A DNA stretch of 64,000 nucleotides, from positions 101,000-164,999 of the forward strand of contig JAJDUF010000011.1 of assembly GCA_022826725.1 (NCBI GenBank). The letters run 5' to 3'. The notes beneath the pieces are model-generated. The model made no database searches, was not told the origin of the DNA, and saw only the letters and a program-made list of their open reading frames with translations. The DNA is from Chloroflexota bacterium (GTDB taxonomy: Bacteria > Chloroflexota > UBA11872 > UBA12225 > JAJDUF01). Shown piece by piece: positions 23,566 to 42,333 of the stretch. Within the stretch, counting starts at the first letter, position 1, and every line of letters begins with the position of its first letter. Position numbers and translations under genes: made by a program.

Positions 23566-23568
23566 GGT

Positions 23569-24888
23569 CTATTTCTCCAAGAGATCGACGTTCAGTTTAC
23601 GGCACAGTGTCCGGGCCAGGTCCAATGGTATGCGGGGATAGCTCAACCATTCGGGGTTAGCAGTCCGCCCAGGAAGTAGCCCAGAAGCCAGCGTCAACGC
23701 CCGCTCGTAAAGTAACGGCCAGCGCTGCGACGCCGGAATGAGGAGTTCTCCGGAATCCGAATCGTGGATCGCCTCCACCTTCTCTTGGTCCGCCTCCAGT
23801 GCGAGGAAGCGTAGGCCGTACCAGTCGCCACGCAACCATCGGTTGAACGGCTCGTCGAAGAACAGGGTCATGGTCCGGCTGGAACCGTCACCATCGCGGC
23901 CTAGCCGGTACATTCCCAGCTCACCGTGCCAGATGCCGTTCTGTTCGTAAAGAGTGTCGCAGGCCTGGAACCCACCTTGTCGCTGCCACCTTTTGACGTC
24001 GTAAGCCGCGATGGGCAGCTTGGGGATGGAGTGCAGCGAGTCCTTCCATCCATTCAGGTCTGGTAATAGGTGAGCCAACTGGATCGAAGTTGACCCGGCT
24101 TCGACAACCCCGAGATCGGCGCCGCCGTTAGTGTCCCGGGGAAGGCTAGACCCCAACGCAATCCGTGGCGGCCCCGGATAGTGGGTCTGGCGTTTCTCGT
24201 TCAGCGACCACCGCTCTTCGAAAACTCGAATCAGCGATTCCGTGCGCTGCCCAGTCAGGAAACCGCTTGCGGGGTCATCGGGAAACCGCACCAGGGCGGC
24301 CGGAGAAGCTGCCCACCGTGAACCATCGCTGGAACGGTCGATGTGGCCGAGGAGATTGAACCGCCGGAATACCGAGCGGGCCTCCTGCCTATCATCAGCT
24401 ACCCTAAGGATCGCGCACGCCTGTGCGAACGCTTCCCAAGTGCCCTCGCCGCGGGCCGAAACCCAGTGCAGCAATCGCTCGGAACGGGCACATACTTCGG
24501 GAGAGGCCTCCTGTGGCTGCCAGGCATCGGATTGCTCGAACGGGTCGCCGGGATCTGCATATTCCAGCCGCCTGTATTGCAGCGAGTTAAAGCCGTGTAT
24601 CCGAATGTCCTGCCGCTGCACCATACCCTTTATCTGGCCCGGCTTCAGTGGATACTCCTCGTCAAACCTGATGCCCAGGCGTTGAAGGATCCTCCCCAAG
24701 CCACCGGGAATTCGGGGACTCTCGTCATCTACTCCCAAGAATACGTAGAACTGTCCCCGGGCATTTTTCTCTAGTTTTACCAGCGGTATCCGCGCAGCCA
24801 GTTCCGCATTCACCACGGTTGTGGTGATTTTCCGGAGAACGTCTTGGGGGGACCCGACTGCTCTAGCGTAAAAGTACTTTCTCTCCAC
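23569..24888 (-). CDS. Druantia-associated hypothetical protein
   Basis: Tight operon with helicase (3-nt gap); C-terminal WPLLYERALTLASGLLP motif. Confidence 0.65.
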   Translation of the reverse strand: MERKYFYARAVGSPQDVLRKITTTVVNAELAARIPLVKLEKNARGQFYVFLGVDDESPRIPGGLGRILQRLGIRFDEEYPLKPGQIKGMVQRQDIRIHGFNSLQYRRLEYADPGDPFEQSDAWQPQEASPEVCARSERLLHWVSARGEGTWEAFAQACAILRVADDRQEARSVFRRFNLLGHIDRSSDGSRWAASPAALVRFPDDPASGFLTGQRTESLIRVFEERWSLNEKRQTHYPGPPRIALGSSLPRDTNGGADLGVVEAGSTSIQLAHLLPDLNGWKDSLHSIPKLPIAAYDVKRWQRQGGFQACDTLYEQNGIWHGELGMYRLGRDGDGSSRTMTLFFDEPFNRWLRGDWYGLRFLALEADQEKVEAIHDSDSGELLIPASQRWPLLYERALTLASGLLPGRTANPEWLSYPRIPLDLARTLCRKLNVDLLEK

Positions 24889-24890
24889 AT

Positions 24891-26618
24891 TCAGCCCCCT
24901 CCCTGGCCAGAGAAGTTACCATTATTCAGGACACTACCACGCAAGATGTAATCACCGATCGGTGTACCAAAGGTCTCTGTAGGATTGGAAGGCTCCAATG
25001 AATCCCAGGAAAGCACCCTCATGTACCGTCTGTCTACCGATCTGTCGTTTTTCAGCACTTGGACGGAATAGTCACCGGCCGCGAGATGGGATAGATCAAC
25101 CGATGTGTTCGCGGTGACCATTTCATCCAGGGCAGGTTCACTGTCCGGTTGTGAGATGTTGGTCACTCTTATCTGCCAGTTGGGATCAAAGGATGTTATT
25201 GAGAGCTCAGGCAGATGTCCCTCAAGCCAGCTATCGCGCCGCCCGGTCGTTAGCCCACCCTTCAGAGAAATGGAGGCCCTGCCGCGAGGTCGAAGCTCAT
25301 GGAACAACTCATGCATCTGTGGAATTATGCCGTCCCAGTTGGCAGACAGTACCATACACTCCCGGTACTCGAACCATTCATCATAGTCCAATGCCTCTAC
25401 TGGATCTCCATCCCAGTTCAACAGTCCTTCGTCTTTGAGGATATTCAACTGTTCCTCGCACTCCTTCCGGCACAGTAGGAGAAAGGTCTCTCCAAGCCGA
25501 GGTGCTCCCCGGCTAGCGAATGTCCCTGAGGCGCTGTCGAACCGGTCACGAACGAGCACCCAGAAGCTCCGCGCCGGTAGGTGTAGCTCTTCAATCCGTG
25601 AATCCCCGCTAATCTGGTAAGTCTTGCCGCCAGCGGGGTGGACCTGCCACAATGGCCGGAACTGGCCATCCTTCTCTTGGTGCAGGGGCTCCGGCCTACC
25701 GTCGTGTATCACAGCCAAGTCCACGCCTAGCTCTCTGGCTTGGCGTCGGGGAAATAGGTGGTAGTCTATCGTACCGAATAGAGGGTCGAATTCCCGGTAC
25801 AGGCCTGCCGTCAATCGCCTTGGGCTTCGCCAACGGGCGGAGGTACCGTCGCCGGTGCTTGGCTGGTTCCAACCTATCATTGTATAGACCCCGTAGACGG
25901 CATCAACGATGGCATCGTATCTATCCGTAGTTGCTTCCTGTGCCAGGCTTCTAATGTGACTTGTGGAGAATCCGGTAGCGCGATTGAAAAACCAGGCGCC
26001 GACCCTTTCCCGGTCGGAGTCTCTGCCCAGTCCATCCTCCGCATTTCTGAAGTCCTCCTCCAACTTCCCTTTATCTCCTTCCCTCAAGAGTGATTGGGAC
26101 AAGGGATAATTGGTAAACTTTGTCGGCCCCTCAGGGCCGCGTTCAGCCGAAGGTTGCCACTCTTTACTCAGTATCCAACTGTTGAAAGCGACCCATAGCC
26201 CCTCCTCCGGTGCGCCGGGGGGCTTCAATCCGCTAGGGCGGCCCCTTTCTCCGCCCAGGTCCAGTATTTCCCGCAGTCGCGTAAAGTAGTTTATTTCGGC
26301 AATGTCGTCTTCCGGTGCCATGCGATGCGCGGCCAACACCATTGCGCCAAGAAAAGCTACATACGGTGGAGTGTCATCTGCCTGTTCCAGAGTTGCTGTC
26401 GGCAGCACGACTCGCCCGTTGGTAACACACTCGTTTCGGACGGCCGACTCAAAGTCCCGCACGGCGCTGGACAATCTGCCCTCGGCAAAGCTGCCAGCTC
26501 CAATTTCTATCAGGGCATCGTCATCCACGCTCAGGTAAAAGACATCTCCGGGGAGCATACCCTCCGTGAAGAATTTCGCGATCGCTTCATTCCACTCGAA
26601 GTAAGAAGCCATGAACAC
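24891..26618 (-). CDS. Druantia-associated protein (DruH/DruF-like N-terminus)
   Basis: YFEWNEAIAKFF...PPYVAFL..MVLAA...NYFTRL; first gene of the three-gene operon. Confidence 0.65.
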   Translation of the reverse strand: MFMASYFEWNEAIAKFFTEGMLPGDVFYLSVDDDALIEIGAGSFAEGRLSSAVRDFESAVRNECVTNGRVVLPTATLEQADDTPPYVAFLGAMVLAAHRMAPEDDIAEINYFTRLREILDLGGERGRPSGLKPPGAPEEGLWVAFNSWILSKEWQPSAERGPEGPTKFTNYPLSQSLLREGDKGKLEEDFRNAEDGLGRDSDRERVGAWFFNRATGFSTSHIRSLAQEATTDRYDAIVDAVYGVYTMIGWNQPSTGDGTSARWRSPRRLTAGLYREFDPLFGTIDYHLFPRRQARELGVDLAVIHDGRPEPLHQEKDGQFRPLWQVHPAGGKTYQISGDSRIEELHLPARSFWVLVRDRFDSASGTFASRGAPRLGETFLLLCRKECEEQLNILKDEGLLNWDGDPVEALDYDEWFEYRECMVLSANWDGIIPQMHELFHELRPRGRASISLKGGLTTGRRDSWLEGHLPELSITSFDPNWQIRVTNISQPDSEPALDEMVTANTSVDLSHLAAGDYSVQVLKNDRSVDRRYMRVLSWDSLEPSNPTETFGTPIGDYILRGSVLNNGNFSGQGGG

Positions 26619-26996: not shown

Positions 26997-30143
<3,147 letters not shown>

Positions 30144-30224: not shown

Positions 30225-30605
30225 TCACGGTGCCGCTGAACGCTCTTCAATGATGACTTCGCCGTCGGCCCATGCTTCCAGCGTTACGCTACTGTCCCAG
30301 AGCAGGTCCATGCCCAGCAGCGGGACACTATCCGATTGCAGCACCAGCGCGTCAGCCAAGCGTCCGTGCCAGGATACCGTAGCGAGGTAGGTAGTGAATT
30401 CGAACGGCTCCCCACTGGCCAGCTCGAAGACTCGATAGCCGGCCGAGGGAAGGCCCAACCGCCGAATGGCATCCGGGGGTAGTGTCAAGTAGCCGGTGAA
30501 TCCAGTGTCTAGGACGACCTCCAATCCTTGGAGGCTGTCTGCGCTGTCCATAATATCTATGGTAATCAAAGCCTGCTGGTACTGGTTTACTTTCCCTCTG
30601 ATCAT
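30225..30605 (-). CDS. Clan AA (retropepsin-like) aspartic protease
   Basis: VLDTGFTG catalytic motif; PLLGMDLL. Confidence 0.85.
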   Translation of the reverse strand: MIRGKVNQYQQALITIDIMDSADSLQGLEVVLDTGFTGYLTLPPDAIRRLGLPSAGYRVFELASGEPFEFTTYLATVSWHGRLADALVLQSDSVPLLGMDLLWDSSVTLEAWADGEVIIEERSAAP

Positions 30606-30871
30606 GGCGTGAACGTCAAGCTCCCGCCGCCCATACTGTAGGCAGCGCGATATCCAACCCGCAGTCCATAGATGACGGCTTCCGACTGCCGCTGCTGCAA
30701 CCGCAGCGTAGCCGTTGCATCGTTGGCATCCAGTTCGTAGTCACCGGTCTCGATGTCAATGACCACGAACTTGCCGTGCTCCTGCGGCTCCACCAAGTGG
30801 CGGATCTTTTCCCGATAGATGGCCTCGCCACGGGCGCTCACCTCTCCGGGGCGGTAGGTCCGGTTCGCCAT
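30602..30871 (-). CDS. Small DUF5678-like partner of the aspartic protease
   Basis: MANRTY...GKFVVIDIETGDYE; GGAGG RBS; ATGA overlap with protease. Confidence 0.7.
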   Translation of the reverse strand: MANRTYRPGEVSARGEAIYREKIRHLVEPQEHGKFVVIDIETGDYELDANDATATLRLQQRQSEAVIYGLRVGYRAAYSMGGGSLTFTP

Positions 30872-30954
30872 AGTAGCCTCCCGTTGACAGTCGCCGATGG
30901 CGCCGCGTGTAACGGCTCCATACCAGTATACCGGGGGTTCGTTAGCGGGTGGGT

Positions 30955-31069
30955 CGCTCGGCGCCGGGGGTATCGGGTGCCATATCCGCCCGTGTGCTAC
31001 CTGCCAGCCGAGGCCGGTCAGCCAGGCGAGGTCAGCGTGCTCGACATCGGCTTCAGCGATGGTGGTCAT
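30955..31069 (-). pseudogene. hsdR: Decayed duplicate of the hsdR 5' end (copy 2)
   Basis: 31038-31069 matches hsdR 30112-30143 at 31/32; [23 protein letters not shown], then frameshift. Confidence 0.85.
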
Positions 31070-31578
31070 TTCGCCCAGTCCATGACGCCAGCGATTACGA
31101 GAAGGATTATGATAGCCAAAACTACGTGCAGTGCAGCGAACAGCATCGGCACCCAGCGTTCGATGCGTGTCACTGCTCGGTAGGTCTTGCCTTGCCCCTC
31201 CTCTGCCAAATCCCACTCATGCTTGTACACCGCCGCCGGCAGATGCTGCTCCAACTCGTGGATCAGGTCGAACTTGATGCGGTTCAGGTCGGTGTGTGAC
31301 TTGATGACCAAATACCAGACTGCGGAAACGGAAACTCCAGTGATGGGAACGAGCAGCGTCCAGTAGTGCTGGCCAAAACTTGCGGACTGTAGCCCGTACA
31401 GCGCGACGAGGGCCGCGTTGATGGTCAGTAGGTACTGGCTCGAAGCGACCCGGCGTGCGCTTACGTTCTCAGCAGACTGCACGTAGAGCTTGTACTGCTC
31501 CACAAGGTCCGCATGGAACGAGCCGCCGTAGGTCTGCTCGGAGCGATGGACTACAGGTTCTCGCGCCTGACTAGCCAT
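31066..31578 (-). CDS. Multi-TM membrane effector (RipA/SLATT-like)
   Basis: LVEQYKLYVQSAENVSARR...YLLTINAAL followed by hydrophobic helices. Confidence 0.7.
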   Translation of the reverse strand: MASQAREPVVHRSEQTYGGSFHADLVEQYKLYVQSAENVSARRVASSQYLLTINAALVALYGLQSASFGQHYWTLLVPITGVSVSAVWYLVIKSHTDLNRIKFDLIHELEQHLPAAVYKHEWDLAEEGQGKTYRAVTRIERWVPMLFAALHVVLAIIILLVIAGVMDWAK

Positions 31579-31581
31579 AGC

Positions 31582-31974
31582 CTACCTCGGCTTTGCAATG
31601 AGTTCCTTTAAAGTAGGCCACGTCCAGGGATGGATTTTCTTCCTTTTAGGCGCTGACTTCGGGCACGAGCATGTCTTGTTCCTGCGGCCCTTCAGCAGGA
31701 AGTACGGTTTCCCTGCCTGCTGCACCATCGTGACTTCCGCCTCCACACCCTTCGCCTGGTGCGTGTGTTCCCCGCAGATAACGATGGTGAGGTCCGTCCT
31801 GTCAATCAGATCTCGTACCTTCTTCCGCCAGCTTTCATCAAACGGTTCCTGCACAGACCAGTCCGTGATGCTGAACGGTGAATCAGGTCTTTCGGCCTGC
31901 GCTACGAGGTTGCCTCGCAGGTCGCTATCGTGGTCGTAGTCGAAGCTGATGAATGCACTCTTGGTAACCATCAC
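31582..31974 (-). CDS. Stand-alone TIR domain (MTH538/ThsB-like)
   Basis: AFISFDYDHD, DWSVQEP, IVICGEHT, GVEAE (putative catalytic Glu). Confidence 0.85.
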   Translation of the reverse strand: MMVTKSAFISFDYDHDSDLRGNLVAQAERPDSPFSITDWSVQEPFDESWRKKVRDLIDRTDLTIVICGEHTHQAKGVEAEVTMVQQAGKPYFLLKGRRNKTCSCPKSAPKRKKIHPWTWPTLKELIAKPR

Positions 31975-32027
31975 TGCCTCCTAGTCTATTGGCAAACGTC
32001 ATCCAGTACCGCTGCGGGCCGGCTGCG

Positions 32028-32185
32028 AGTCAGTTCGGCGAGGGTGTTCCGCACCTGCCGTTCCAGAATCAGTTGTCCGCAGTCGGCCCACTCGGCGCCG
32101 GGAGTATCGGGTGCGTTGCCCGGCCCGTGCGCCACCTGCCAGCCAACGGCAGACCGTCAGGCCAAGGTGGCGGCTTCGGTGAGGA
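32028..32185 (-). pseudogene. hsdR: More decayed duplicate of the hsdR 5' end (copy 3)
   Basis: 24-nt identity CGGCCCGTGCGCCACCTGCCAGCC with 30060-30083; reads [25 protein letters not shown]. Confidence 0.8.
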
Positions 32186-32214
32186 CAACTATCGTCCATC
32201 TACCATACCTTGTG

Positions 32215-33813
32215 CTAATCCGAGCTATCGCTCTTCTGCTGCACCGCGACCATGACGACAAATCCACGCTTCCCATGAAAACCTTTCCCTCCCGGCCCTT
32301 TCCAGCCATAACTCCCAGTGTTCCCAACCCTACCTTTAAATACCTCTACTACGCTGCTACTATCACCACCTGAAACCTGGACTAGTACATGCCCGATGAC
32401 ATCATCAGGATTCTGCTCGACGTGACATTGATACTCCCGTGGCCCAATCTCTCCCACAATTCTTTCTAAAGCGCTCAGGTTTTGAACAGCACTACTACGG
32501 TCCCTCTGCTCTTGTTCCGCCTGCCGATAACACTCAACGGCTTCATTGAACCGTCCAAGAGCTACGAGCGCATTTCCTTTATTGAAAATCACTCGTTCCT
32601 CGCCTAGGGCAATTGCTTTATCGTAATCTCCAATGGCCTCTCTAAACTTCCCTAAATCCATATAAGTATTTCCGCGATTGAACAATGCCTGTTCGCGGCC
32701 GAAAGCTACAGGTTCACCCAAGCTCACTTCGATTGCTTTGCCATAGTAGAGCAATGCTTCCTCGTAATCGTCCAATGCAGCCAACGCATTTCCGCAGTTA
32801 AAGTAGACCATGACCAGAAATCGACTCCGCAAGAATTCGTTTATATCCAGAACCAGGCTAAGAAAGGGTTGGTCTTTATGGGCCATTGCTTGTCCGTAAT
32901 CTTCTATAGCATCACGATAGAGTTTCGCTTCGGACTTCGCATTCCCACGTAAAAAGTAGGGTTCGCCAATATCTGATGCAAGTTCTATGCAATTATCGTA
33001 AGCAGTAATGGCCTGTGCGTAATCACCCGACTGGAAATGATGGTTCCCCTGGACTAGGTAAAACTGGGGGTCTGTGACCCGTATGGATGACGACACTCCT
33101 TCCGATGCAGAGAATCCATAGATATCGGGGAATAAGGATGACTCGCCGATATCCAGCAATGCAAGTTCTTCAAGGAGTGAATTCTTGTCGTCCTTCGGAA
33201 TTTCTATTTCCGTTATGATCTGGCTATCGGTGGGGATTAAAGGTCGTCCAATAACAAACACTCCACGCTGCCTAAGTATCCTGGGCATCGCATCACCACT
33301 CCACATCGGCTCACAATAGAGCAAGCCGGGAGCGTTAGCCTCGCGGTAAAACACCGCGTCAATCGTTTGGCCACCTTGATCGCTTGGTACCTTGGCAACG
33401 TGAATAGTGTCATTCGTATTTAAGATGAACAGCTTCCCGTTACAATCGCTTGCTTCGCGACTGGCGAACCACAGCGAGACCAGAGGGTCCCACGTGAAGT
33501 CCAGCAAGCCAGTAGCCGCCCCGAAATGTTGCAATTTGGCGAGAAGCTGAAGATCTGAAATGTCGCGTCCGGCCTCGACTCCGAACCCGCGAGTGCGTGC
33601 GGCGTCTACAAGGGTGTTGCGGTGGTAGTCGGCATAGATATTGGCGAATCGAGGATTCTTCAAGACGTCATTCCCCAGGTTCTCAATGAGACGACGGGTG
33701 GCTGCCGAACGTAGGGGCCATGGCGACTTGGCCTGACCTCGGTAGGCGTAGATGCCCGGTCTGGAGGTAGCTTCTCTTATCTTTTGAAGGAATTTATCAA
33801 TGATGGTAGCCAT
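32215..33813 (-). CDS. FRG domain + TPR repeat protein
   Basis: YRGQ, LQHFGAATGLLDFT, RILRQRG; TPRs such as ALFNRGNTY..LG..EAI.DYDKAI. Confidence 0.85.
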   Translation of the reverse strand: MATIIDKFLQKIREATSRPGIYAYRGQAKSPWPLRSAATRRLIENLGNDVLKNPRFANIYADYHRNTLVDAARTRGFGVEAGRDISDLQLLAKLQHFGAATGLLDFTWDPLVSLWFASREASDCNGKLFILNTNDTIHVAKVPSDQGGQTIDAVFYREANAPGLLYCEPMWSGDAMPRILRQRGVFVIGRPLIPTDSQIITEIEIPKDDKNSLLEELALLDIGESSLFPDIYGFSASEGVSSSIRVTDPQFYLVQGNHHFQSGDYAQAITAYDNCIELASDIGEPYFLRGNAKSEAKLYRDAIEDYGQAMAHKDQPFLSLVLDINEFLRSRFLVMVYFNCGNALAALDDYEEALLYYGKAIEVSLGEPVAFGREQALFNRGNTYMDLGKFREAIGDYDKAIALGEERVIFNKGNALVALGRFNEAVECYRQAEQEQRDRSSAVQNLSALERIVGEIGPREYQCHVEQNPDDVIGHVLVQVSGGDSSSVVEVFKGRVGNTGSYGWKGPGGKGFHGKRGFVVMVAVQQKSDSSD

Positions 33814-33850
33814 ATACGTCTACCCCCGCGGGCGAACTGGAGAGGAACTG

Positions 33851-35407
33851 CTACATCCGCATCTCACCCGACACCAGCCTCGGCAGCAGCGTATCACGCA
33901 GCGCGGCGAGGGTGCTATTCTGTCGGCGACAGGCGAGCGTGCGGTTCAGGAGTTCGGAGGTGGCCATCTCGAACGCACGCAGAGTCGGTACTGGCGGAAA
34001 CACTACCTCTAGGGAGAGCACAGCATCTGCACGTGCTCGTTGGTGACTCTTTGATGTGCCTGTGACAAGCGCCTCGATCTGCTGCCGGAAGAGCGGCGAG
34101 CGCGCCAGACAGTAGACATAGCTCCGTGTGAACGGCGGTCGAGGGCGAAGCACCAGAAACTCGGTCGAACACACGGCCCGCTCGTCAGCTTCTACATCCA
34201 CCAGCCATACGCGCTCAATGTTCGGGTTCAACTTGGAGAGGAGGACAACGCCGGGGGGCACACGTGACTTGATACTCTTGATGCTTGCGCCTTGCTCTTG
34301 TTTGGGTGTCTGTCCATCATCGAAGGCGGGGATGCTGAAGTGGTTGAACATGGCGTTTGGCGATGCCAGCGGGTTCTCTTGGTCACGAAGTTGGGTGACG
34401 ATATCACTAAAGGGTCTCACCTCCCACCCCGAAGGTATCTCCCCCAACTCCGATTCTACCAGCCGCTCTGGGAACAGCGCCCACAGCTCCGGCGGCAGGT
34501 ACGGCGGGTGACCGGCCAGCTTGGCGCGAGTGGGGCCGAAGTCCACGAACCAGTCCTGGAAGAGGGCGCGGGCCATGGCCTCCAGCGTCTCGTTCATCCG
34601 GCGGTTCAGCTCGATCTTGTCGTCGAGCGTGCCGAGGACGTAGGCGGCGGTCCGCTGTGCGTTCTTACTCAGGCCGGGGTAAGGAATCTCTGCGAGTTGA
34701 CGCGCAGAAACGTTCGGAAAGGTCGAGCCAGTCGCTTGGACCAACAACTCTGGAAGTTCAACCTCGATTATCCCCCGCACAAATGGCTGGAGTTCGGGCT
34801 CATTCCGGTGACGAATCGCTGCAACACCGCGGCCGATCGCATACTCCTGATCCGCCCAGTTCATGCGGCCAGTGGTTGAGCCTCTAACACAGAAGAGTAG
34901 ATCACCCGGCTGTGCGAACTTGCGGGCGTCAGTAGTGTACTGGACTGGAATCGGATGGTGAGCGCCGAATTCGGTCGGTCCGTTCAGAAGAGCGAATCCA
35001 TGATGCGGTGACACTGTGTCGCCTGATGGGGACTGACCCATGACAATATCGGCAACTTCCCCCAAGGTTGTAGCCTCCCACCCACTCGCCGCTGCCGATT
35101 GCTTGTCCGTGCCTTGCTGCAACACCACGTAGTCGCGCTCTATCACCGCCCGGAAGCGCGCAGAAATCGTGTGCCAGTCAAGCACGTCCACCCGCATGGG
35201 CAACTCCGATTCCTCGAAGGCTTCTTTCAGCCGAGCGAGCCTTCGCCGCTCCAGTGGCCCTTCGCCGACAACGGCCAGGTCCAGGTCGGAGTAGTCCTTC
35301 GCGGTCCAGGTCGCACGGGAACCGAAGGCGCGTATTTCACACACCGGCACGTGCTCTGCCAGGATGCGCCGGACCGTTTCGAGGTGATGCGGGTTGAGGT
35401 CAATCAT
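33851..35407 (-). CDS. hsdS: Type I RM specificity subunit with N-terminal MNT nucleotidyltransferase fusion
   Basis: FGSRATWTAKDYSDLDL (MNT) in frame with two TRDs and LDDKIELNRRMNETLEAMARALF, LRDTLLPRLVSGE. Confidence 0.9.
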   Translation of the reverse strand: MIDLNPHHLETVRRILAEHVPVCEIRAFGSRATWTAKDYSDLDLAVVGEGPLERRRLARLKEAFEESELPMRVDVLDWHTISARFRAVIERDYVVLQQGTDKQSAAASGWEATTLGEVADIVMGQSPSGDTVSPHHGFALLNGPTEFGAHHPIPVQYTTDARKFAQPGDLLFCVRGSTTGRMNWADQEYAIGRGVAAIRHRNEPELQPFVRGIIEVELPELLVQATGSTFPNVSARQLAEIPYPGLSKNAQRTAAYVLGTLDDKIELNRRMNETLEAMARALFQDWFVDFGPTRAKLAGHPPYLPPELWALFPERLVESELGEIPSGWEVRPFSDIVTQLRDQENPLASPNAMFNHFSIPAFDDGQTPKQEQGASIKSIKSRVPPGVVLLSKLNPNIERVWLVDVEADERAVCSTEFLVLRPRPPFTRSYVYCLARSPLFRQQIEALVTGTSKSHQRARADAVLSLEVVFPPVPTLRAFEMATSELLNRTLACRRQNSTLAALRDTLLPRLVSGEMRM

Positions 35408-35822
35408 TGCGCGCTTCCAACGCCGCCAGCAGCAGCCGCGCGTCGTGTACGAACTCCCTGGTGGCGCTATAGACCAGCGCGGCCTTCGCCTCGTCGTAGA
35501 TGTGGGCGGTGACGTTCCTGGCTTCGTGGTGCTGCATCCAGAGGTCCACGTCGGGAATGAGGCGATTCTCGGCCGCGAGGCGAAATAGCTGCCGCCGCGT
35601 AACGCCATCCGCGACATCGGGGCCGACGTAGGTCCTCAGCCAGCGTGCTATCAGCTTCCAGGAAAGCTCGTAGGTGACCTCGAAGTTCTGTATGACGCCG
35701 GAGCGAATACCATTCCGCTCGACCTCAGTCAACTCTCCCATACGCGCGTCATTTTCGCTGACCGCAAGGAGGTCTGCGAGCGCTGTAATCGCGTTTCTCA
35801 GGTGGTCCAACTCCAGTGGCAT
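35400..35822 (-). CDS. HEPN toxin / nucleotidyltransferase substrate-binding protein (HI0074-like)
   Basis: GVIQNFEVTYELSWK; RNVTAHIY (RX4HXY); overlaps the MNT-HsdS start. Confidence 0.88.
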   Translation of the reverse strand: MPLELDHLRNAITALADLLAVSENDARMGELTEVERNGIRSGVIQNFEVTYELSWKLIARWLRTYVGPDVADGVTRRQLFRLAAENRLIPDVDLWMQHHEARNVTAHIYDEAKAALVYSATREFVHDARLLLAALEARND

Positions 35823-35892
35823 GTTCTTCCTCGCTACCCGCGGACGTTCTCCGCAATCACCGGGACCATGGCGAATGCTCCTCTCCCGTCAG

Positions 35893-37467
35893 CTAACGAT
35901 AGCCTAAGCGGGCCAGATTGGTCGCAATCGCCGCGTCCAGCCGCTGCGCCTCGGCTTGCTGCTCGTGCCACTCTGCCGTAAGCCGTTCCATCTTCGCCGC
36001 GAACGGCTCTCCGTCCTCCTCCGGCGCCGCGGCGCCGACATACCGGCCGGGGGTGAGCACGTGGCCGTGCTTGCGGACCTCCTCCAGGTCCGCACTCTTG
36101 CAGAAGCCGGGCACGTCAGCGTAATCGTCCCCACTGCGCCAGGCGTGGTAGGTGTCGGCGATACGGGCGATGTCCTCGTTCGTCAGCTCGCGGTGGGTGC
36201 GGTCTACCATGCGGCCCAGTTGGCGGGCATCAATGAAGAGCACCGCACCGCGCCGGTCGCGGAACTGCCCGTTGCGGCGGTTGCGGGCCAGGAACCAGAG
36301 GCAGGCCGGTATCTGGGTGGAGTAGAAGAGTTGCCCGGGCAGCGCCACCATGCAGTCCACCAAGTCGGCCTCGATCAGGTTCTTGCGGATCTCACCCTCG
36401 CCCGACTGGTTCGAGGACATGGAGCCGTTGGCCAGCACGAAGCCGGCGGTGCCGGTGGGCGCCAGGTGGTGGATCATATGCTGCACCCAGGCAAAGTTGG
36501 CGTTGCCTACCGGCGGGATGCCGTACCGCCAGCGCTGGTCCTCGCGCAGCCGCTCGCCGTCCCAGTCGGAGTCGTTGAAGTGCGGATTGGCCAGGATGTA
36601 GTCGGCCTTCAGGTCGGGGTGCCGGTCGTCATGGAAGCTGTCGCTGTGGGCGATCTGGCCCTCAATGCCTCGGATGGCCAGATTCATTTGCGCGAGCCGC
36701 CAGGTGGTGTAGTTGGACTCCTGGCCATAGATGGAGATGTCTGCCCGTGCCCGGCCGCCGTTCCCGTTGCCGCTGGCATGGGCGCAAATGAAATCCACCG
36801 ACTGCACGAACATGCCCGCAGAACCGCAGCAGGGATCGTAGACCCGGCCGCGGTACGGCTCCAGCATTTTGACCAGCAGTTGCACGACGCTGTGGGGGGT
36901 ATAGAACTCGCCGCCCTTCTTACCCTCGGCGCTGGCGAACTGGGACAGAAAGTACTCGTACACGCGACCGAGCACGTCGTTGGCGCGAGCGGCTGCATCG
37001 CCGACTCGAATGTTGCTGATGACATCAATCAACTGCCCGAGCCGCAGTTTGTCGAGGTTTGGACGAGCGTAATCCTTCGGGAGCACATCCTTGAGCGCGG
37101 AGTTGTCGCGCTCGATACCGGCCATGGCGTCGTCCACCAACTGGCCGATAGTAGGCTGCCGGGCCTGCGCTTTGAGATGTGACCAGCGTGCTTCCGGCGG
37201 TACCCAGAAGATGCCTTGGGCGCGATACTCGTCCGGGTCCTCGGGGTCGGCGCCTTGGTCCCGCTCGGCTTCCAGCTGAGTGTGGGCCTCCTCGAAGGCA
37301 TCAGAGATGTACTTGAGGAAGAGCAGGCCCAAGACGACGTGCTTGTATTCGGCGGCGTCCATGCTGCCGCGCAGGGCGTCGGCCATCCGCCACAATTCGG
37401 CCTCGTAGCCAGTGGTGGCGCTGTTACCGGACTTGGTCTCCGGCTGACGCCGCCGCACCGCGGTCAT
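35893..37467 (-). CDS. hsdM: Type I RM methyltransferase subunit
   Basis: [39 protein letters not shown]. Confidence 0.95.
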
Positions 37468-37652
37468 GGTGCTCCCCTCCCACGCTTGGTCACAGCCATT
37501 TCTGGCTGCCTCCGCACAGCCCTGCCCCATATGGTCACGGGCGCTACCCAAGCATATGCGCCGAGAAACCTTCGGTCAATGCCAATCAGGCGAAGGCCAC
37601 AATCGCTACACATGAGCAGTTCTTCGGGCAACGCCCCAACCTTGGTGAGCCA

Positions 37653-37777
37653 GTCGCAGGCGGCCACCGTGCGTGGGACGCCCCCTCCTGGGCCAACCTC
37701 CTCACCGACACCATCCGCTACGCGGGCGATACAGTTGTCGTGTGGTGGTTGAGCAACCGCGCGGCCGCCCGTCCGTT
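37653..37777 (+). pseudogene. Decayed copy of the 3' end of the chromosomal gene at 43714-45246
   Basis: ACCTCCTCACCGACACCATCCGCTACGCGGGCGATAC matches the minus strand near 43766-43802 at 35/37; LLTDTIRYAGDT..WWLSNR vs LLADTIRYAGDT..RWLTNR. Confidence 0.8.
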
Positions 37778-37972
37778 ACCGTATTTAGGATAGTAATAAC
37801 TACCTGTTGGCTACTCTAATCCCAACTCTAGGGGCTTGCCGGCTGGAGTTGAATTGCGGGTGTGAGTTTAGTGGCGCTAGCCGCCATGTCGTGGGGACCG
37901 ATTGGCGCAAGTTCTGGACTCCTCCCCACGACATTGAGCAGCCACGGGGAATACTGAAGGTGGACTATCGAA

Positions 37973-39715
37973 TTGATTGCTACGTCCGATTTACCGTACA
38001 TTGACGCTGACGACTTCGGGCGACGTTTCGCCTTGCGAGCCCGGAATCTGATGTGGCTCCTTGGTGCAGGAGCGTCTGCTGCCGCCGGTGTGCCTACTGC
38101 CATGGACATGGTGTGGGATTTCAAGCAGCAGCTATTCGCCAGTCAGAGGCGAGTGTCACTCCAGACGATCTCGGACCTATCCAGTCCCGTCGTTCGCGAT
38201 CGGCTACAAGCGCATATTGACTCATTAGGTCAATTGCCCTCAGTTGGCTCTGCTGCCGAATATGCAGCGCTTTTTGAGGCAGCGTATCCTTCTGAAGTAG
38301 ACAGAAGATCTTACTTGGACGCAAAGGTATCGGGCGCGAAACCGTCCTATGGGCACTTGGCACTCGCAACTCTCATGCATGCAGATCGCACACGACTCGT
38401 ATGGACGACTAACTTTGACGCGCTTATCGCCGACGCTTGCGCTAGAGTCTACGACACGACAGGTGCGTTGACTACCGCTACTCTTGATGCACCCGCCATG
38501 GCCACGCAGGCCATTAGCAGCGAACGGTGGCCGGTGGAAGTGAAATTACATGGAGACTTCCGTTCACGGCGTCTCAAGAATACTCCCGATGAACTACGTC
38601 AACAAGAAGCACAACTGAGACATTTGCTTGTCGAATCGTGCAAACGGTTTGGTCTGATCGTAGTTGGTTATAGTGGGCGTGATGACTCTGTAATGGACGC
38701 CCTTGAAGATGCACTGGTATCGTCCAACACCTTTCCCGACGGCTTGTTCTGGTTACATCGTGGCGATCATCCGCCTTTACCGCGGGTCGCTAATCTGTTG
38801 ACTAAGGCCCAAGCCGCACAGATAGAAGTCGGATTAGTTCCCGTAGAGAACTTCGACGAGACACTTCGTGATCTGGTGCGACTCATCAGCGACTTGGATA
38901 CATCTACACTGAATTCCCTTGCAATGGAGCGCCAACATTGGAGCAGCGCGCCACGGCTAAGTGGCAGGCGTGGGTGGCCAGTTGTCCGGCTGAACGCGCT
39001 TCCATTGGATCATGTGCCAAGTGTGTGCAGACGTGTGGTCTGTGAGATTGGTGGCACATCAGAAGTACGAGAGGCAGTTGTGAAGGCGAGGGCCAATGCA
39101 ATCGCTGTTCGCTCGAGCCGTGGTGTGCTGGCTTTTGGATCGGATCCCGAGATTCGTGCTGCCCTTGAACCCTATAATATTGTAGATTTCGATATCTACA
39201 CCCTTGATCCGAGCCGGCAGCGATACGACTCAACGGAGCGTGGCTTACTGCGGGAGGCTTTGACCCAGGCGATTGTGCGGCAGCACAGTCTGAGCGCGAC
39301 CCGGCGCCGCAGTTTAGATCTGCTAGCACCGGTTGATCCGACAGAACATGCATGGTCGCAGTTAAAGAAGATAGTGGGACCACTTACCGGAATGGTTCCG
39401 GGCCATCGAGAGTTAAAGTGGCGCGAGGGAATAGGCATTCGCCTCGATTGGGCTGATGACCGACTATGGCTGTTGATCGAACCGCGAACCGTGTTTGACG
39501 GCATCAACGCTGACAACAGGTTCGCCGCAGCGGACTTTGCCCGCAAGCGAACGGTCAGACGTTACAATAGGCAACTCAACGACCTTCTCGAATTCTGGTC
39601 CATTCGACTGGCCTCCGGCGAAAGTGACATTCGTGCTCTGGCGATTGGTGACGGTCTTGATGCTGTCTTCCGCATATCCAATAGAGCGTGTTTCTCGCGG
39701 AGAGTTGGAGCATGA
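37973..39715 (+). CDS. SIR2-APAZ NADase effector of a short Argonaute system (SPARSA-like)
   Basis: LLGAGAS, WTTNFD, KLHGD, GYSGRD; C-terminal RYNRQLNDLLEFW; coupled to pAgo. Confidence 0.88.
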   Translation: MIATSDLPYIDADDFGRRFALRARNLMWLLGAGASAAAGVPTAMDMVWDFKQQLFASQRRVSLQTISDLSSPVVRDRLQAHIDSLGQLPSVGSAAEYAALFEAAYPSEVDRRSYLDAKVSGAKPSYGHLALATLMHADRTRLVWTTNFDALIADACARVYDTTGALTTATLDAPAMATQAISSERWPVEVKLHGDFRSRRLKNTPDELRQQEAQLRHLLVESCKRFGLIVVGYSGRDDSVMDALEDALVSSNTFPDGLFWLHRGDHPPLPRVANLLTKAQAAQIEVGLVPVENFDETLRDLVRLISDLDTSTLNSLAMERQHWSSAPRLSGRRGWPVVRLNALPLDHVPSVCRRVVCEIGGTSEVREAVVKARANAIAVRSSRGVLAFGSDPEIRAALEPYNIVDFDIYTLDPSRQRYDSTERGLLREALTQAIVRQHSLSATRRRSLDLLAPVDPTEHAWSQLKKIVGPLTGMVPGHRELKWREGIGIRLDWADDRLWLLIEPRTVFDGINADNRFAAADFARKRTVRRYNRQLNDLLEFWSIRLASGESDIRALAIGDGLDAVFRISNRACFSRRVGA

Positions 39716-41145
39716 GCAGCGAGATTGCCCCGCATATCTGGCTACCTGAGCCAAAGTTGGCATTCCATCATGACCGCTTGTCAGATCACGCGATCCATCC
39801 GCTACGAGGACTTCTGAAGTTTGGCCCTTACTCGGCCGGCTTGGTGCCAGACCCAATCAGAATAGCCACGATTGTCCCCTTCGGAGATGGTGAATGTCTT
39901 TACAGGTTTATGAGAAAAATAAACTCGCAATTCTCTCCAAAGGAACGCAAGGACTATCTGCCTGAATGGCCTGGATTCCAACGTGTCTTTGGCCTTCATA
40001 TGAGGGCAGCACAACATAAGTGCCACATCGAACTACACCAAGAACTTGAAGGAGAATTCACTAGATCACCGAGACCTCACATCGTACTAGCTGAACGTCT
40101 AGTAAGAGCTATTCAACTGCTGCAGGCGCACCGGTCCGAATTCGATGTCATTTTCATCTACATACCTCAACGCTGGAGTACTGGATACGTTGGTAGCTCT
40201 GACGAAGATTTCGATCTCCACGACCACTTGAAGGCTACGACAGCTGCCCTCGGACTGCCAATCCAGCTAGTTCGAGAAGACAGCGCCCTTACTTACCACT
40301 GCCAGGCCAGCGTCATGTGGCGCATCTGTCTGGCGTTATACGCTAAGGCAGGTGGTATTCCCTGGAAGTTGGCTGATACTGAAGCGGAAACGGCATACAT
40401 CGGCATCTCTTACGCCATGCGTTCAACAGAACTAGGTATGCCGCAATTTATCACATGCTGTAGTCAAGTGTTCGATGCTGGTGGTTCCGGCCTAGAGTTC
40501 GTTGCCTACGATGCCCACGAGTTCAATGTCTACCGTGACAACCCATTCCTCTCACGGAATGAAATGTTCCGTGTAATGACTCGGTCAATAGATCTCTATC
40601 GCCGACGCCACGCTGGCAAGTCGCCCCGCCGTGTAGTGGTACATAAGACTACCGAGTTTAAGCGGGACGAGGTTGACGGCTGCATGGAGGCACTGCATCT
40701 GTGCGAGTCGGTTGACTTGATACAGGTCGTCGAAAACGTGGGATGGCGTGGTGTGCGTATCGACCGCAATCATCATGGAGCCAAGAGAGGTAAGCAAGGA
40801 AGCGCCGCCGCCTTCCCGGTCTCGCGGGGAACAGCGATAGGCCTTTCACCGCGAGAGGCACTAGTATGGACCCACGGGGACGTGAAGGGCGTAAGCACAC
40901 GGGGTTCTTTCTTCAAAGGTGCTCGGAGCACACCCAGCCCGCTTCGGTTGGTGCGCCACGCCGGCCACGGCCCATGGGACGAGACTGTCCGCTCTATCCT
41001 GGGGCTCACGAAGATGAACTGGAACAACGACTCACTATACGACACGTTGCCCGTCACCATGGCCTATGCAAAGGTGCTAGCCCGTGTAATCAAGCGCATG
41101 CCGACCCTGAGACGCACGCCCTATCAGTTCCGGTTCTTCATGTAG
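39712..41145 (+). CDS. Short prokaryotic Argonaute (MID-PIWI)
   Basis: LPEPKL.F, HPLRGLLKFGPY, DLHDHLKA, ALYAKAGGIPW, VVVHK, LTKMNWN, C-terminal YQFRFFM; ATGA overlap. Confidence 0.9.
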   Translation: MSSEIAPHIWLPEPKLAFHHDRLSDHAIHPLRGLLKFGPYSAGLVPDPIRIATIVPFGDGECLYRFMRKINSQFSPKERKDYLPEWPGFQRVFGLHMRAAQHKCHIELHQELEGEFTRSPRPHIVLAERLVRAIQLLQAHRSEFDVIFIYIPQRWSTGYVGSSDEDFDLHDHLKATTAALGLPIQLVREDSALTYHCQASVMWRICLALYAKAGGIPWKLADTEAETAYIGISYAMRSTELGMPQFITCCSQVFDAGGSGLEFVAYDAHEFNVYRDNPFLSRNEMFRVMTRSIDLYRRRHAGKSPRRVVVHKTTEFKRDEVDGCMEALHLCESVDLIQVVENVGWRGVRIDRNHHGAKRGKQGSAAAFPVSRGTAIGLSPREALVWTHGDVKGVSTRGSFFKGARSTPSPLRLVRHAGHGPWDETVRSILGLTKMNWNNDSLYDTLPVTMAYAKVLARVIKRMPTLRRTPYQFRFFM

Positions 41146-41524: not shown

Positions 41525-41551
41525 GGTTCTGGATTTTGTCCAGTTAGGTGG
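41525..41551. repeat. Right attachment site (inverted arm + GGTGG core overlapping the tRNA 3' end)
   Basis: Inverted match to 304-323; directly abuts tRNA-Ala. Confidence 0.85.
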
Positions 41552-41621
41552 ACCTGGCCGGACTCGAACCGGCGACCCCCGCGATGCGAACGCGATGCTC
41601 TCCCAACTGAGCTACAGGCCC
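41549..41621 (-). tRNA. tRNA-Ala(CGC)
   Basis: GGGCCTG/CAGGTCC acceptor stem with G3:U70, D arm GCTC/GAGC, anticodon loop TT-CGC-AT, T loop TTCGAGT; followed by CCT rather than CCA. Confidence 0.96.
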
Positions 41622-41769: not shown

Positions 41770-42333
41770 TCATCGTGTTGCTACACCGACCGACGCAGAA
41801 CCAACCTCCGACTGCACGTACTCGTCAAAGCAAGACTCGAGCGAATCGACAAACAGTCGAGCTTGCCTATAATGAGAGTAAATCTCCTCGCTCGTCTTTT
41901 CCAATGAAAACGTGCCAAAATCCTGATGCACTAGTCTGTTTCTGTCGTTGCCGAGTTCAAGAAATGCCCGTATAGCTTGCCTGTACTCTTCTTCTTCCCT
42001 AACGCGCCTATCCATGTGTGACTTGAAACCCCGTCCGAAAAGACCAAAGAAGGAATTGGCATTATTCCCACTCCATCCGAAGTATGAGTGAAACTGCCTT
42101 TCGACAGCTTTGTTTCGAACAAATTCTGTAACCAGATCACTGCCAGAGTTCTTTTCCACGATCCTCATAACGCAGCTCCTGATTTCCTGTTCAAAGTGGC
42201 TGAATGCCGCAAGCAATAGATTCTTCCGGAAGGCATCTCCTGCAATTGAACGAAGAGATACCTCTGTCTCATCAAGGCTGTCCATGATATCCTTAAAGTC
42301 ACGGTATAATCCATCGACTATGGTCAGTTCCAT
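41770..42333 (-). CDS. HEPN-domain protein (putative RNase effector)
   Basis: LLLAAFSHFE and RNRLVH (RX4H); 3 nt downstream of DUF262 gene. Confidence 0.8.
   Translation of the reverse strand: MELTIVDGLYRDFKDIMDSLDETEVSLRSIAGDAFRKNLLLAAFSHFEQEIRSCVMRIVEKNSGSDLVTEFVRNKAVERQFHSYFGWSGNNANSFFGLFGRGFKSHMDRRVREEEEYRQAIRAFLELGNDRNRLVHQDFGTFSLEKTSEEIYSHYRQARLFVDSLESCFDEYVQSEVGSASVGVATR

Follow-up and report, generated by a model that had tools for sequence, protein, structure and literature searches.

Organization of the locus

The window analysed here, a stretch of 64,000 nucleotides from a Chloroflexota bacterium (contig JAJDUF010000011.1 of assembly GCA_022826725.1), carries on its minus strand a type I restriction-modification (RM) operon in which an MNT-type nucleotidyltransferase, the kind of enzyme that serves as antitoxin in type VII toxin-antitoxin (TA) pairs, forms the N-terminal domain of the specificity subunit HsdS, directly downstream of a gene for a candidate toxin of the HEPN class. 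Restriction systems are the commonest form of bacterial immunity and are routinely disarmed by phages; how cells detect that their restriction enzyme has been disarmed is understood for only a handful of examples, among them PrrC, PARIS, retrons, and Ronin. The HEPN gene and the fusion gene, MNT::HsdS, make up the span 33851-35822, with hsdM just beyond it and hsdR farther along. The order hsdM, HEPN, MNT::HsdS, which an initial annotation had read from the nucleotide sequence, was confirmed by the open reading frames (ORFs) and Pfam matches on the minus strand:

37551..35893, minus strand: hsdM, type I methyltransferase subunit (Pfam N6_Mtase 4.4e-109, HsdM_N 2.7e-27)
35822..35400, minus strand: HEPN gene, 140 aa, HI0074 family (PF08780 NTase_sub_bind 1.3e-30)
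35400..35407, minus strand: 8-nt overlap of the HEPN stop (TGA 35402-35400) and the MNT::HsdS start (ATG 35407-35405)
35407..33851, minus strand: MNT::HsdS fusion gene, 518 aa (Pfam NTP_transf_2/Polbeta at residues 10-94, Methylase_S at residues 108-276)
35108..35407, minus strand: MNT domain, fusion residues 1-100 (PF01909/PF18765, PDB 1NO5 4.8e-23)
35081..35107, minus strand: linker DKQSAAASG, residues 101-109 (predicted local distance difference test score, pLDDT, <50 for residues 102-110)
33851..35080, minus strand: HsdS part, residues 110-518 (PADLOC Specificity_I 2.9e-80 over residues 107-517, PF01420, PDB 3OKG/5YBB 5e-28)
26997..30143, minus strand: hsdR, 1048 aa, intact (HSDR_N, SWI2_SNF2, T1R_D3-like, T1RH-like_C; TIGR00348 2.3e-167)

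The type I system is complete, with hsdM 5′ of the fusion gene and hsdR 3′ of cargo genes that are described below. The longest ORF of hsdM comprises 552 aa and starts with TTG; the true start is likely an ATG about 28 codons inside this frame, near position 37467. The NCBIfam hsdM model was matched with a score under its cut-off. The initial annotation had correctly recognized that the MNT domain is joined in frame to a complete HsdS, with no stop codon between the two, and that the motifs RNVTAHIY of the HEPN protein and GSRA...SDLD of the MNT domain are intact. The extent of the gene had to be revised: the 588-aa ORF from position 35617 is merely the longest open frame, and the true start is the ATG at 35407 (MIDLNPHH...). 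The overlap of the HEPN gene with the fusion gene suggests that the two may be translationally coupled. An overlap of -8 is also found at nine related loci, and most other loci have a small spacing. A scan of positions 33600-37900 found one promoter-like site, located before hsdM (0.8 expected by chance), and no terminator (2.8 expected), which is compatible with a single operon, yet at chance level. The fusion is named "restriction endonuclease subunit S" by PGAP, which leaves the antitoxin hidden.

A contig of 4667 nt obtained with another assembler from run X1 covers positions 33851-35822 with 0 differences and no indels; run X1 is probably the source sample and hence not an independent sample. 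A contig of another study (X3 record 27) spans the MNT/HsdS junction free of gaps. The idea that a frameshift or misassembly fused two genes, a reservation entered in the initial annotation, deserves almost no credence in view of the identical re-assembly from the probable source run and the recurrence of the fusion in hundreds of independent records, and an assembly error was rejected. Contigs of other metagenome runs match the HEPN gene and the MNT domain (35078-35822) and the central conserved region of HsdS (34417-34658), and they break at the borders of this region with loose ends at 34417-34419 and 34638-34646. Such breaks fit a shuffling of target-recognition domains (TRDs) around conserved joints.

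Properties of the MNT::HsdS fusion protein

The nucleotidyltransferase motif GSX10DXD is intact and corresponds to GSRATWTAKDYSDLD at residues 29-43 of the MNT domain. The key residues G29, S30, D41, D43, D74, and D77, which include the third acidic residue, are invariant in 120 of 120 fusion proteins listed from the protein search described below, as is the presence of the GS..DxD motif itself. The domain matches HI0073 of Haemophilus influenzae and, weakly, the MNT of Legionella pneumophila; with 38.8 bits against the NCBIfam MntA model, it stays under the 60-bit cut-off of that model. Unlike the small free antitoxin of type VII pairs, it is a domain of a 518-aa HsdS fusion. AlphaFold2 (AF2) modeling of the whole fusion (mean pLDDT 66, predicted template modeling score [pTM] 0.37) gave poor TRDs and an MNT domain with a pLDDT of about 80-86. 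The HsdS part contains two TRDs as well as conserved helices in the center and at the C-terminus, which AF2 places at residues 248-288 and 473-512. By its domain content it is a type I specificity subunit, with a predicted role in sequence-specific methylation and restriction. One PADLOC Specificity_I model aligns to residues 1-118 and thus takes in the MNT domain.

The linker between the two parts varies in length and sequence among the relatives. In the window it contains no in-frame ATG, GTG, or TTG, so that HsdS could hardly be produced apart from MNT. An analysis of internal starts in 48 relatives found V, L, or M codons in or beside the linker of 39, in 15 cases with a Shine-Dalgarno-like stretch, and most of these codons fall in the last MNT strand. 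Some relatives keep an ATG 3-4 codons before a conserved Trp (GMAGEW), and HsdS may be translated separately there. The objection that HsdS might be made as a protein of its own, which the initial annotation had itself raised, has little weight for the window but retains some for these relatives.

The HEPN protein as a toxin candidate

The Rx4HxY motif of the HEPN protein is intact, RNVTAHIY corresponding to residues 102-109 (R102, H107, Y109). R102 and Y109 are kept in 27 of 27 cases and H107 in at least 90%. The protein belongs to NCBIfam TIGR01987, the HI0074 family (74.1 bits versus a cut-off of 55.8), and in sequence it matches HI0074 (PDB 1JOG, 1.4e-13), 1WTY, and the L. pneumophila toxin (8XDJ/8YUF, ~1e-7; 8XDJ 2e-7). 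Its AF2 model (pLDDT 93.6) superimposes on 1JOG with a template modeling (TM) score of 0.90 and on 8XEH/8XDJ with 0.76-0.79, in contrast to only ~0.6 for the DUF86-class toxins 5YEP and 7AE8. Q45 and E48 (IQNFE) lie at the position of the Mg site of the L. pneumophila relative. The sole Pfam match is PF08780, and an ABC ATPase domain is absent. Family, motif, and fold matches agree with the earlier assignment of the HEPN/MNT pair to the class acting by Tyr AMPylation, of which the L. pneumophila pair is the closest tested member. By analogy with these homologues, the HEPN protein would be an RNase silenced through AMPylation of Tyr109 by the MNT domain.

A different role was considered, in which a domesticated HEPN protein would have ceased to be a toxin and would serve in substrate binding, with the MNT domain transferring nucleotides to an RM subunit, DNA, or RNA and thereby tuning restriction or modification. 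HI0074 was first described as the substrate-binding subunit of a nucleotidyltransferase, and Anantharaman et al. argue that HEPN-MNT pairs repeatedly turned into regulatory enzymes by domestication (PMC3710099). According to the same text, fused domesticated HEPN proteins usually lose motif residues, whereas here the Tyr acceptor is retained together with the Arg and His of the motif, and the free relatives resemble ordinary TA pairs. We regard this role as very unlikely.

Recurrence of the fusion in 12 phyla

A protein search with residues 1-130 of the fusion as query (targets of 284-907 aa, E<=1e-3) matched 1200 proteins, and among the 120 listed, 119 possess PF01420 plus nucleotidyltransferase domains. 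In a genome scan with one genome per species, 599 of 603 candidate places were confirmed. The best 80 of these, which were chosen by likeness to the query and are thus a biased sample, comprise 42 loci with MNT and HsdS in a single frame, 3 with a separate MNT, and 35 with the same HsdS family but no MNT. HEPN is located directly upstream in all 42 fused loci, and in 41 of them its stop codon lies -34 to +47 nt from the projected MNT start; hsdM follows farther upstream and hsdR usually downstream. Among these 42 loci, 12 phyla are represented, led by Chloroflexota (12 loci) and Pseudomonadota (11) and followed by Actinomycetota and Acidobacteriota (4 each) and eight further phyla. In a search with the MNT domain without length filter in a library of 1.84 billion proteins, the best 150 cluster representatives were classed as MNT+HsdS of at least 400 aa (68), MNT+HsdS pieces (16), free proteins of up to 130 aa (19), proteins of 131-250 aa without class (38), longer proteins without HsdS match (8), and one with a HEPN domain; the fused shares are overstated, as hypervariable TRDs scatter the fusions over many clusters. 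The fusion is real, conserved, and widespread. A one-off event, against which the initial annotation had called for a check of recurrence, was rejected on the basis of this occurrence across 12 phyla.

At several loci (L041 [576-1902], L059, L065, L037, L024, L043, and L110), the single MNT::HsdS gene is preceded by HEPN paralogues in tandem, two or three in number, or by an additional free MNT.

Split and free forms of the HEPN/MNT pair

A tblastn search of 72,556 plasmids gave matches in 261 records, 12 of them with at least 80% query coverage. Plasmid pZMOB01 of the cultured bacterium Zymomonas mobilis ATCC 10988 carries an "HI0074 family" gene (3-392), a 528-aa fusion (389-1972), and hsdR; the fusion, annotated as "restriction endonuclease subunit S", was confirmed by translation. 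On Acetobacter plasmids, HEPN is followed by an MNT gene of its own (100 aa) and then by hsdS and hsdR, and at the junction the MNT stop codon, four codons, and the hsdS ATG all lie in one frame. In Z. mobilis ZM4, Lal et al. (2021, PMC8432527) reportedly deleted the plasmid-borne hsdSp without growth cost. The deletion primers have no match on pZMOB01, the plasmid collection searched yielded no ZM4 plasmid, and the paper does not mention a nucleotidyltransferase; ZM4 hsdSp may or may not be a fusion, and the deletion was counted neither for nor against any reading.

A search for shorter proteins yielded 795 relatives of 30-283 aa. Among the 120 listed, 56 have 100-124 aa and are true free MNTs with 64-84% identity, and truncated fusions account for many of the longer ones. 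When metagenomes were scanned with one free MNT (248 confirmed places, best 80 kept), fused operons emerged together with two-gene HEPN-MNT modules that had no hsd gene within 5 kb. Genes adjoining six of these free modules encode GatB, an MFS transporter, a sigma-54 activator, transketolase, beta-galactosidase, succinate dehydrogenase, and other ordinary proteins. The free modules retain the toxin-first order and the overlap of stop and start codons. The genome from which the window derives has a second, distant free MNT (37% identity, 120-aa frame; G000:C11:50448-50762), and its count of PF08780 HEPN proteins is one.

Evolutionary pattern

A tree of HEPN+MNT was calculated from 102 rows (61 fused, 41 free) after 7 rows cut by contig ends had been dropped. 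The deepest branches are mostly fused, and the free forms are found in shallow clades, which is partly a sampling effect. The fused state persists down to a median HEPN identity of 29-32%. All 61 fused loci have the MNT motif. Rx4HxY occurs in 58 of them and in 32 of the 41 free pairs, a contrast that is no test of retention, as the losses in free pairs, including Tyr to Asp, sit in one shallow clade.

For the 31 fused loci with full-length HsdM, the median pairwise identity was 29% for HEPN, 42% for MNT, and 71% for HsdM. The identities of HEPN and MNT are correlated with each other (r=0.70) and not with those of HsdM (r=0.02 and 0.06, respectively). This co-variation without tracking of HsdM indicates that HEPN and MNT evolve as a cognate pair. 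The two diverge fast or are exchanged often within a far more uniform restriction family.

Three observations concern individual loci. The free HEPN proteins of a shallow clade (L108, L116, L141, L145, L160) have the sequence RNLTSHID, with Asp replacing the AMP-acceptor Tyr, and in L112 and L115 the motif His of the free HEPN is replaced by Leu. An in-frame deletion in L014 (5503-6846) has removed the catalytic core of MNT along with the C-terminal helix of HEPN, so that HEPN, up to about residue 118, continues into the last MNT strand and then HsdS. Such a joint loss is expected if the antitoxin cannot be lost alone; it is one case only.

Cargo genes and genomic surroundings

The interval between hsdS and hsdR of the window is occupied by three stacked cargo cassettes, identified by Pfam, by PADLOC (PDC-S15 and ThsB), and by the direct repeats D1, D2, and D4:

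30225..33813, minus strand: the three cassettes together
33813..32215, minus strand: cassette with FRG+TPR
31974..31066, minus strand: cassette with a ThsB-like TIR protein and an 8xMP membrane protein
about 30900..30225, minus strand: cassette with a small ORF and a retropepsin-like protein

In the second cassette, the ThsB-like TIR gene (130 aa) is followed immediately by that of the octameric membrane protein 8xMP (PF24838, 3e-36), and the two look like a two-gene module. Remnants of the hsdR 5′ end trail the first two cassettes, so that this end exists in three copies: the real start (29936-30143), 30955-31069, and 31997-32171. The extra copies show 87% identity over 85 nt and 70% over 175 nt, and each lies just downstream (on the minus strand) of a cargo cassette, as if the cassettes had arrived by recombination carrying a piece of hsdR.

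Directly after hsdR follows a Druantia-like three-gene unit (17881-26618, minus strand) encoding a DruF-like protein of 575 aa, a DruL4-like protein of 439 aa, and DruE4 of 1894 aa (E=0); the DruF-like and DruL4-like proteins gave no Pfam match. On the other side, divergent from hsdM, the overlapping genes for a SIR2-APAZ protein (PADLOC Aga_SIR2-PNTD1-PNTD2, 4e-188) and a short prokaryotic Argonaute (pAgo_I, 2e-196) occupy 37973-41145 on the plus strand. Just past the Argonaute gene lies tRNA-Ala(cgc) (41547-41621, minus strand), which may be the island edge, and beyond it a gene for a RiboL-PSP-type HEPN protein (41770-42333, minus strand). The GC content is 53-64% from about 18 to 44 kb versus 66-75% in the flanks at 8-18 kb and 44-54 kb.

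Interpretation

We favor a reading to which we give an even chance, namely that the locus encodes an active type VII pair with an antitoxin supply bound to that of HsdS, which would confer addiction as well as backup upon HsdS failure. A pair of the HI0074/HI0073 family lies inside a complete type I RM operon, in the interval from hsdM to hsdS. With the toxin gene first, the C-terminus of the antitoxin faces hsdS, and in the absence of an intervening stop codon the antitoxin forms the N-terminal domain of HsdS, to which a flexible linker of about nine residues connects it. Toxin-first order and a short MNT without helix alpha4 account for the ability of this subfamily to fuse to a downstream gene. 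As in the homologues, the MNT domain would use ATP to AMPylate Tyr109 in Rx4HxY and thus keep the HEPN RNase inactive. As every antitoxin molecule is an HsdS molecule, antitoxin supply depends on the translation, folding, and stability of HsdS. Whenever this supply is halted and HEPN is still made, newly synthesized HEPN would stay unmodified, cut RNA, and arrest the cell. Such a halt could follow if the operon is lost or silenced, if hsdS, a gene that often recombines, suffers a rearrangement or a nonsense mutation, if HsdS is broken down, or upon shut-off by a phage. The specificity gene and the operon would thereby become addictive, and an abortive backup would be available when restriction fails. 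Direct sensing of anti-restriction proteins would not be needed. In favor of this reading are the invariant catalytic residues of the MNT domain, the HEPN gene in front of all 42 fused loci, the occurrence of the fused state in 12 phyla and on the deepest branches, the co-variation of HEPN and MNT, the likeness to the tested L. pneumophila pair, and the linker devoid of start codons; PrrC and Ronin are precedents for the restraint of a toxic effector by HsdMS complexes.

A number of results weigh against this supply model. On the HEPN+MNT tree the label fused or free changes 11 times, at least 7 of these changes being forced by well-supported branches, and a tree with all free forms together was rejected (delta lnL 923, p-AU 5.8e-5; groups named post hoc). 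Presence of the module changes 15-16 times on an HsdM tree of 61 rows, and the same RM family lacks the module at 35 of the 80 loci. Free pairs make up 41 of the 102 rows, with an hsd gene in the locus for just 3, and their occurrence among metabolic and regulatory genes implies that HEPN/MNT needs no RM system. The position of the stop codon and the hsdS ATG in the MNT frame on the Acetobacter plasmids implies that fused and split forms are one codon or mutation apart and both viable. In the AF2 model, MNT is a separate domain on a floppy linker without confident packing between MNT and HsdS. AMPylation as known from the homologues would be covalent, and toxin already modified would stay silent absent a de-AMPylase, none of which was recognized at the locus; covalent neutralization means that toxin release requires new synthesis or de-AMPylation. 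The sampling limits stated above for the best 80 loci and the best 150 representatives point in the same direction.

Several of these observations would also be accounted for by a neutral fusion, in which selfish or defence cargo nested in a permissive hsdM-hsdS gap lost the MNT stop codon and the free N-terminus of HsdS tolerated the addition. Loss of the start signals of hsdS itself would then have made the change hard to reverse, and the pair would act just as its free relatives do, with no communication with the restriction complex. This is possible, with a probability clearly short of even. It is in line with the gene order and overlap that free pairs of the same clade share, with the in-frame split form one codon away, with the frequent gain and loss of the module relative to hsdM, with the flexible linker lacking predicted interdomain packing, and with the unrelated cargo nested in the operon, such nesting being called common by Payne et al. 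(bioRxiv 10.1101/2024.01.29.577857). It does not readily explain why fused proteins are the majority of the closest MNT relatives (at least 84 of the 150 best representatives, a share subject to the overstatement mentioned above), why fusions extend over 12 phyla and the deepest branches of the tree, and why the motifs are retained at least as well as in free pairs, although the clade-clustered losses make the latter no test. Even a neutral fusion ties antitoxin supply to HsdS synthesis, and some coupling is therefore unavoidable.

The initial annotation had proposed a guard in which loss, degradation, or phage inhibition of HsdS could free the RNase. In a stricter, built-in form of it, MNT would be active only on a healthy M2S or R2M2S complex, and phage anti-restriction proteins (DNA mimics of the Ocr/ArdA type, Stp-like peptides) or an attack on HsdS would switch it off. 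Fresh HEPN would then remain un-AMPylated and shut down translation. The guard interpretation as a whole is partly supported; free pairs, split forms, RM loci without the module, the flexible linker, and covalent neutralization speak against its strict form, and we consider the built-in guard unlikely. A dedicated sensor of anti-restriction, the strong form of what the initial annotation proposed, in which DNA mimics such as Ocr or ArdA or Stp-like peptides bound to M2S would block or displace the tethered MNT and newly made, unmodified HEPN would abort the infection, likewise strikes us as unlikely. PrrC is freed when Stp hits EcoprrI (PMC3710099), and in Ronin, HsdMS keeps RonA in check until ArdA, Ocr, or Aop1 sets it off (bioRxiv 10.1101/2023.04.06.535777), both being analogies only; in addition, the antitoxin sits physically on the subunit that anti-restriction inhibitors bind. 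On the other hand, the sequence data give no sign of allostery and the linker is flexible, free and split forms function without HsdS, and with catalytic and covalent AMPylation a block of MNT would affect only newly made toxin.

An antitoxin enzyme placed covalently in the specificity subunit is a clean, testable physical link from a restriction complex to a putative suicide RNase, and it bears on the question of how a covalently silenced toxin is released in type VII systems. The natural coexistence of fused (pZMOB01), split (Acetobacter plasmids), and free forms makes the effect of the fusion directly testable. If the guard were true, this would be the first enzymatic antitoxin built as a domain into the very immune complex under its guard, and the paired fast divergence of HEPN and MNT compared to the conserved HsdM would reflect an arms race. 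If the fusion were neutral, it would still be a clear example of nested restriction-operon cargo welded to core genes.

Comparison with known systems

In sequence and fold, the best matches are HI0073/HI0074 of H. influenzae (1NO5 and 1JOG; MNT 4.8e-23, HEPN 1.4e-13 with a TM score of 0.90). In contrast to the fusion, they are a free two-protein pair consisting of a nucleotidyltransferase and a substrate-binding subunit, and we know of no link between them and HsdS.

The HEPN-MNT pair of L. pneumophila (PDB 8XDJ, 8XEH, 8YUF) is the closest tested relative, as described by Jin et al. (2024, PMC11586414). There, an MNT of 108 aa without helix alpha4 binds as one monomer per HEPN tetramer and poly-AMPylates the Tyr of RX4HXY, and the HEPN RNase activity requires a Q44/E47-Mg site. 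Shared with the pair in the window are the HEPN size of ~140 aa, the RX4HXY motif, and a Q..E pair where the Mg site lies, as well as a short MNT (~100-108 aa) with GSX10DXD and no alpha4 helix. Unlike in the window, where MNT is the N-terminal domain of HsdS, the L. pneumophila MNT is a free protein without reported RM genes. The identity of the two HEPN proteins is low (~20%), and the activity of the one in the window is a prediction. In HepT-MntA of Shewanella and HEPN-MNT of Aphanizomenon (5YEP, 7AE8), the same Tyr AMPylation in Rx4HxY is expected. These differ in belonging to another HEPN family (DUF86, TM score ~0.6), in a long MNT with alpha4, and in having the antitoxin gene first, an order in which the C-terminus of the antitoxin cannot fuse to a downstream gene.

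PrrC is a HEPN RNase encoded in a type I RM operon and proposed to be silent as long as the EcoprrI complex is intact (PMC3710099). The comparison with PrrC drawn in the initial annotation holds for the shared logic and for the location of a HEPN gene within a type I RM operon. It does not extend to the protein family: PrrC is a large ABC-ATPase-HEPN protein that is silenced non-covalently without an antitoxin enzyme, whereas the HEPN protein here has 140 aa, lacks the ABC ATPase domain, and would be silenced by AMPylation. Membership in the PrrC family was rejected on these grounds. In the decoy system Ronin of E. coli ECOR55, a toxic effector encoded nearby is restrained by HsdM/HsdS, and cell death ensues in response to anti-restriction proteins (bioRxiv 10.1101/2023.04.06.535777). 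The effector is the 61-aa membrane peptide RonA, and hsdR, enzymatic neutralization, and a fusion are absent; the window differs by its soluble HEPN effector and its intact hsdR.

Payne et al. described defence genes embedded in type I RM loci and other systems, which they treated as separate systems (bioRxiv 10.1101/2024.01.29.577857). The window resembles these loci, since the interval from its hsdS to its hsdR is filled with FRG-TPR, TIR+8xMP, and further cargo. Neither MNT nor nucleotidyltransferase occurs in the text of that preprint, supplements excepted. Anantharaman et al. (2013, PMC3710099) described HEPN RNases in RM operons as PrrC-like second lines and RM-linked HEPN domains fused to nucleases, helicases, and ATPases as well as MNT-first as the usual gene order; "HsdS", "specificity subunit", and "S subunit" do not occur in the text. 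Full-text literature searches, which cover neither figures nor supplements, returned no description of an MNT-HsdS fusion, and the label "RM_TRD" in Fig. 5 of Anantharaman et al. might depict one. As far as searched, the MNT-HsdS fusion is undescribed in the literature. Type VII TA pairs and defence cargo nested in type I RM operons are known already; what is new here is the fusion that joins them.

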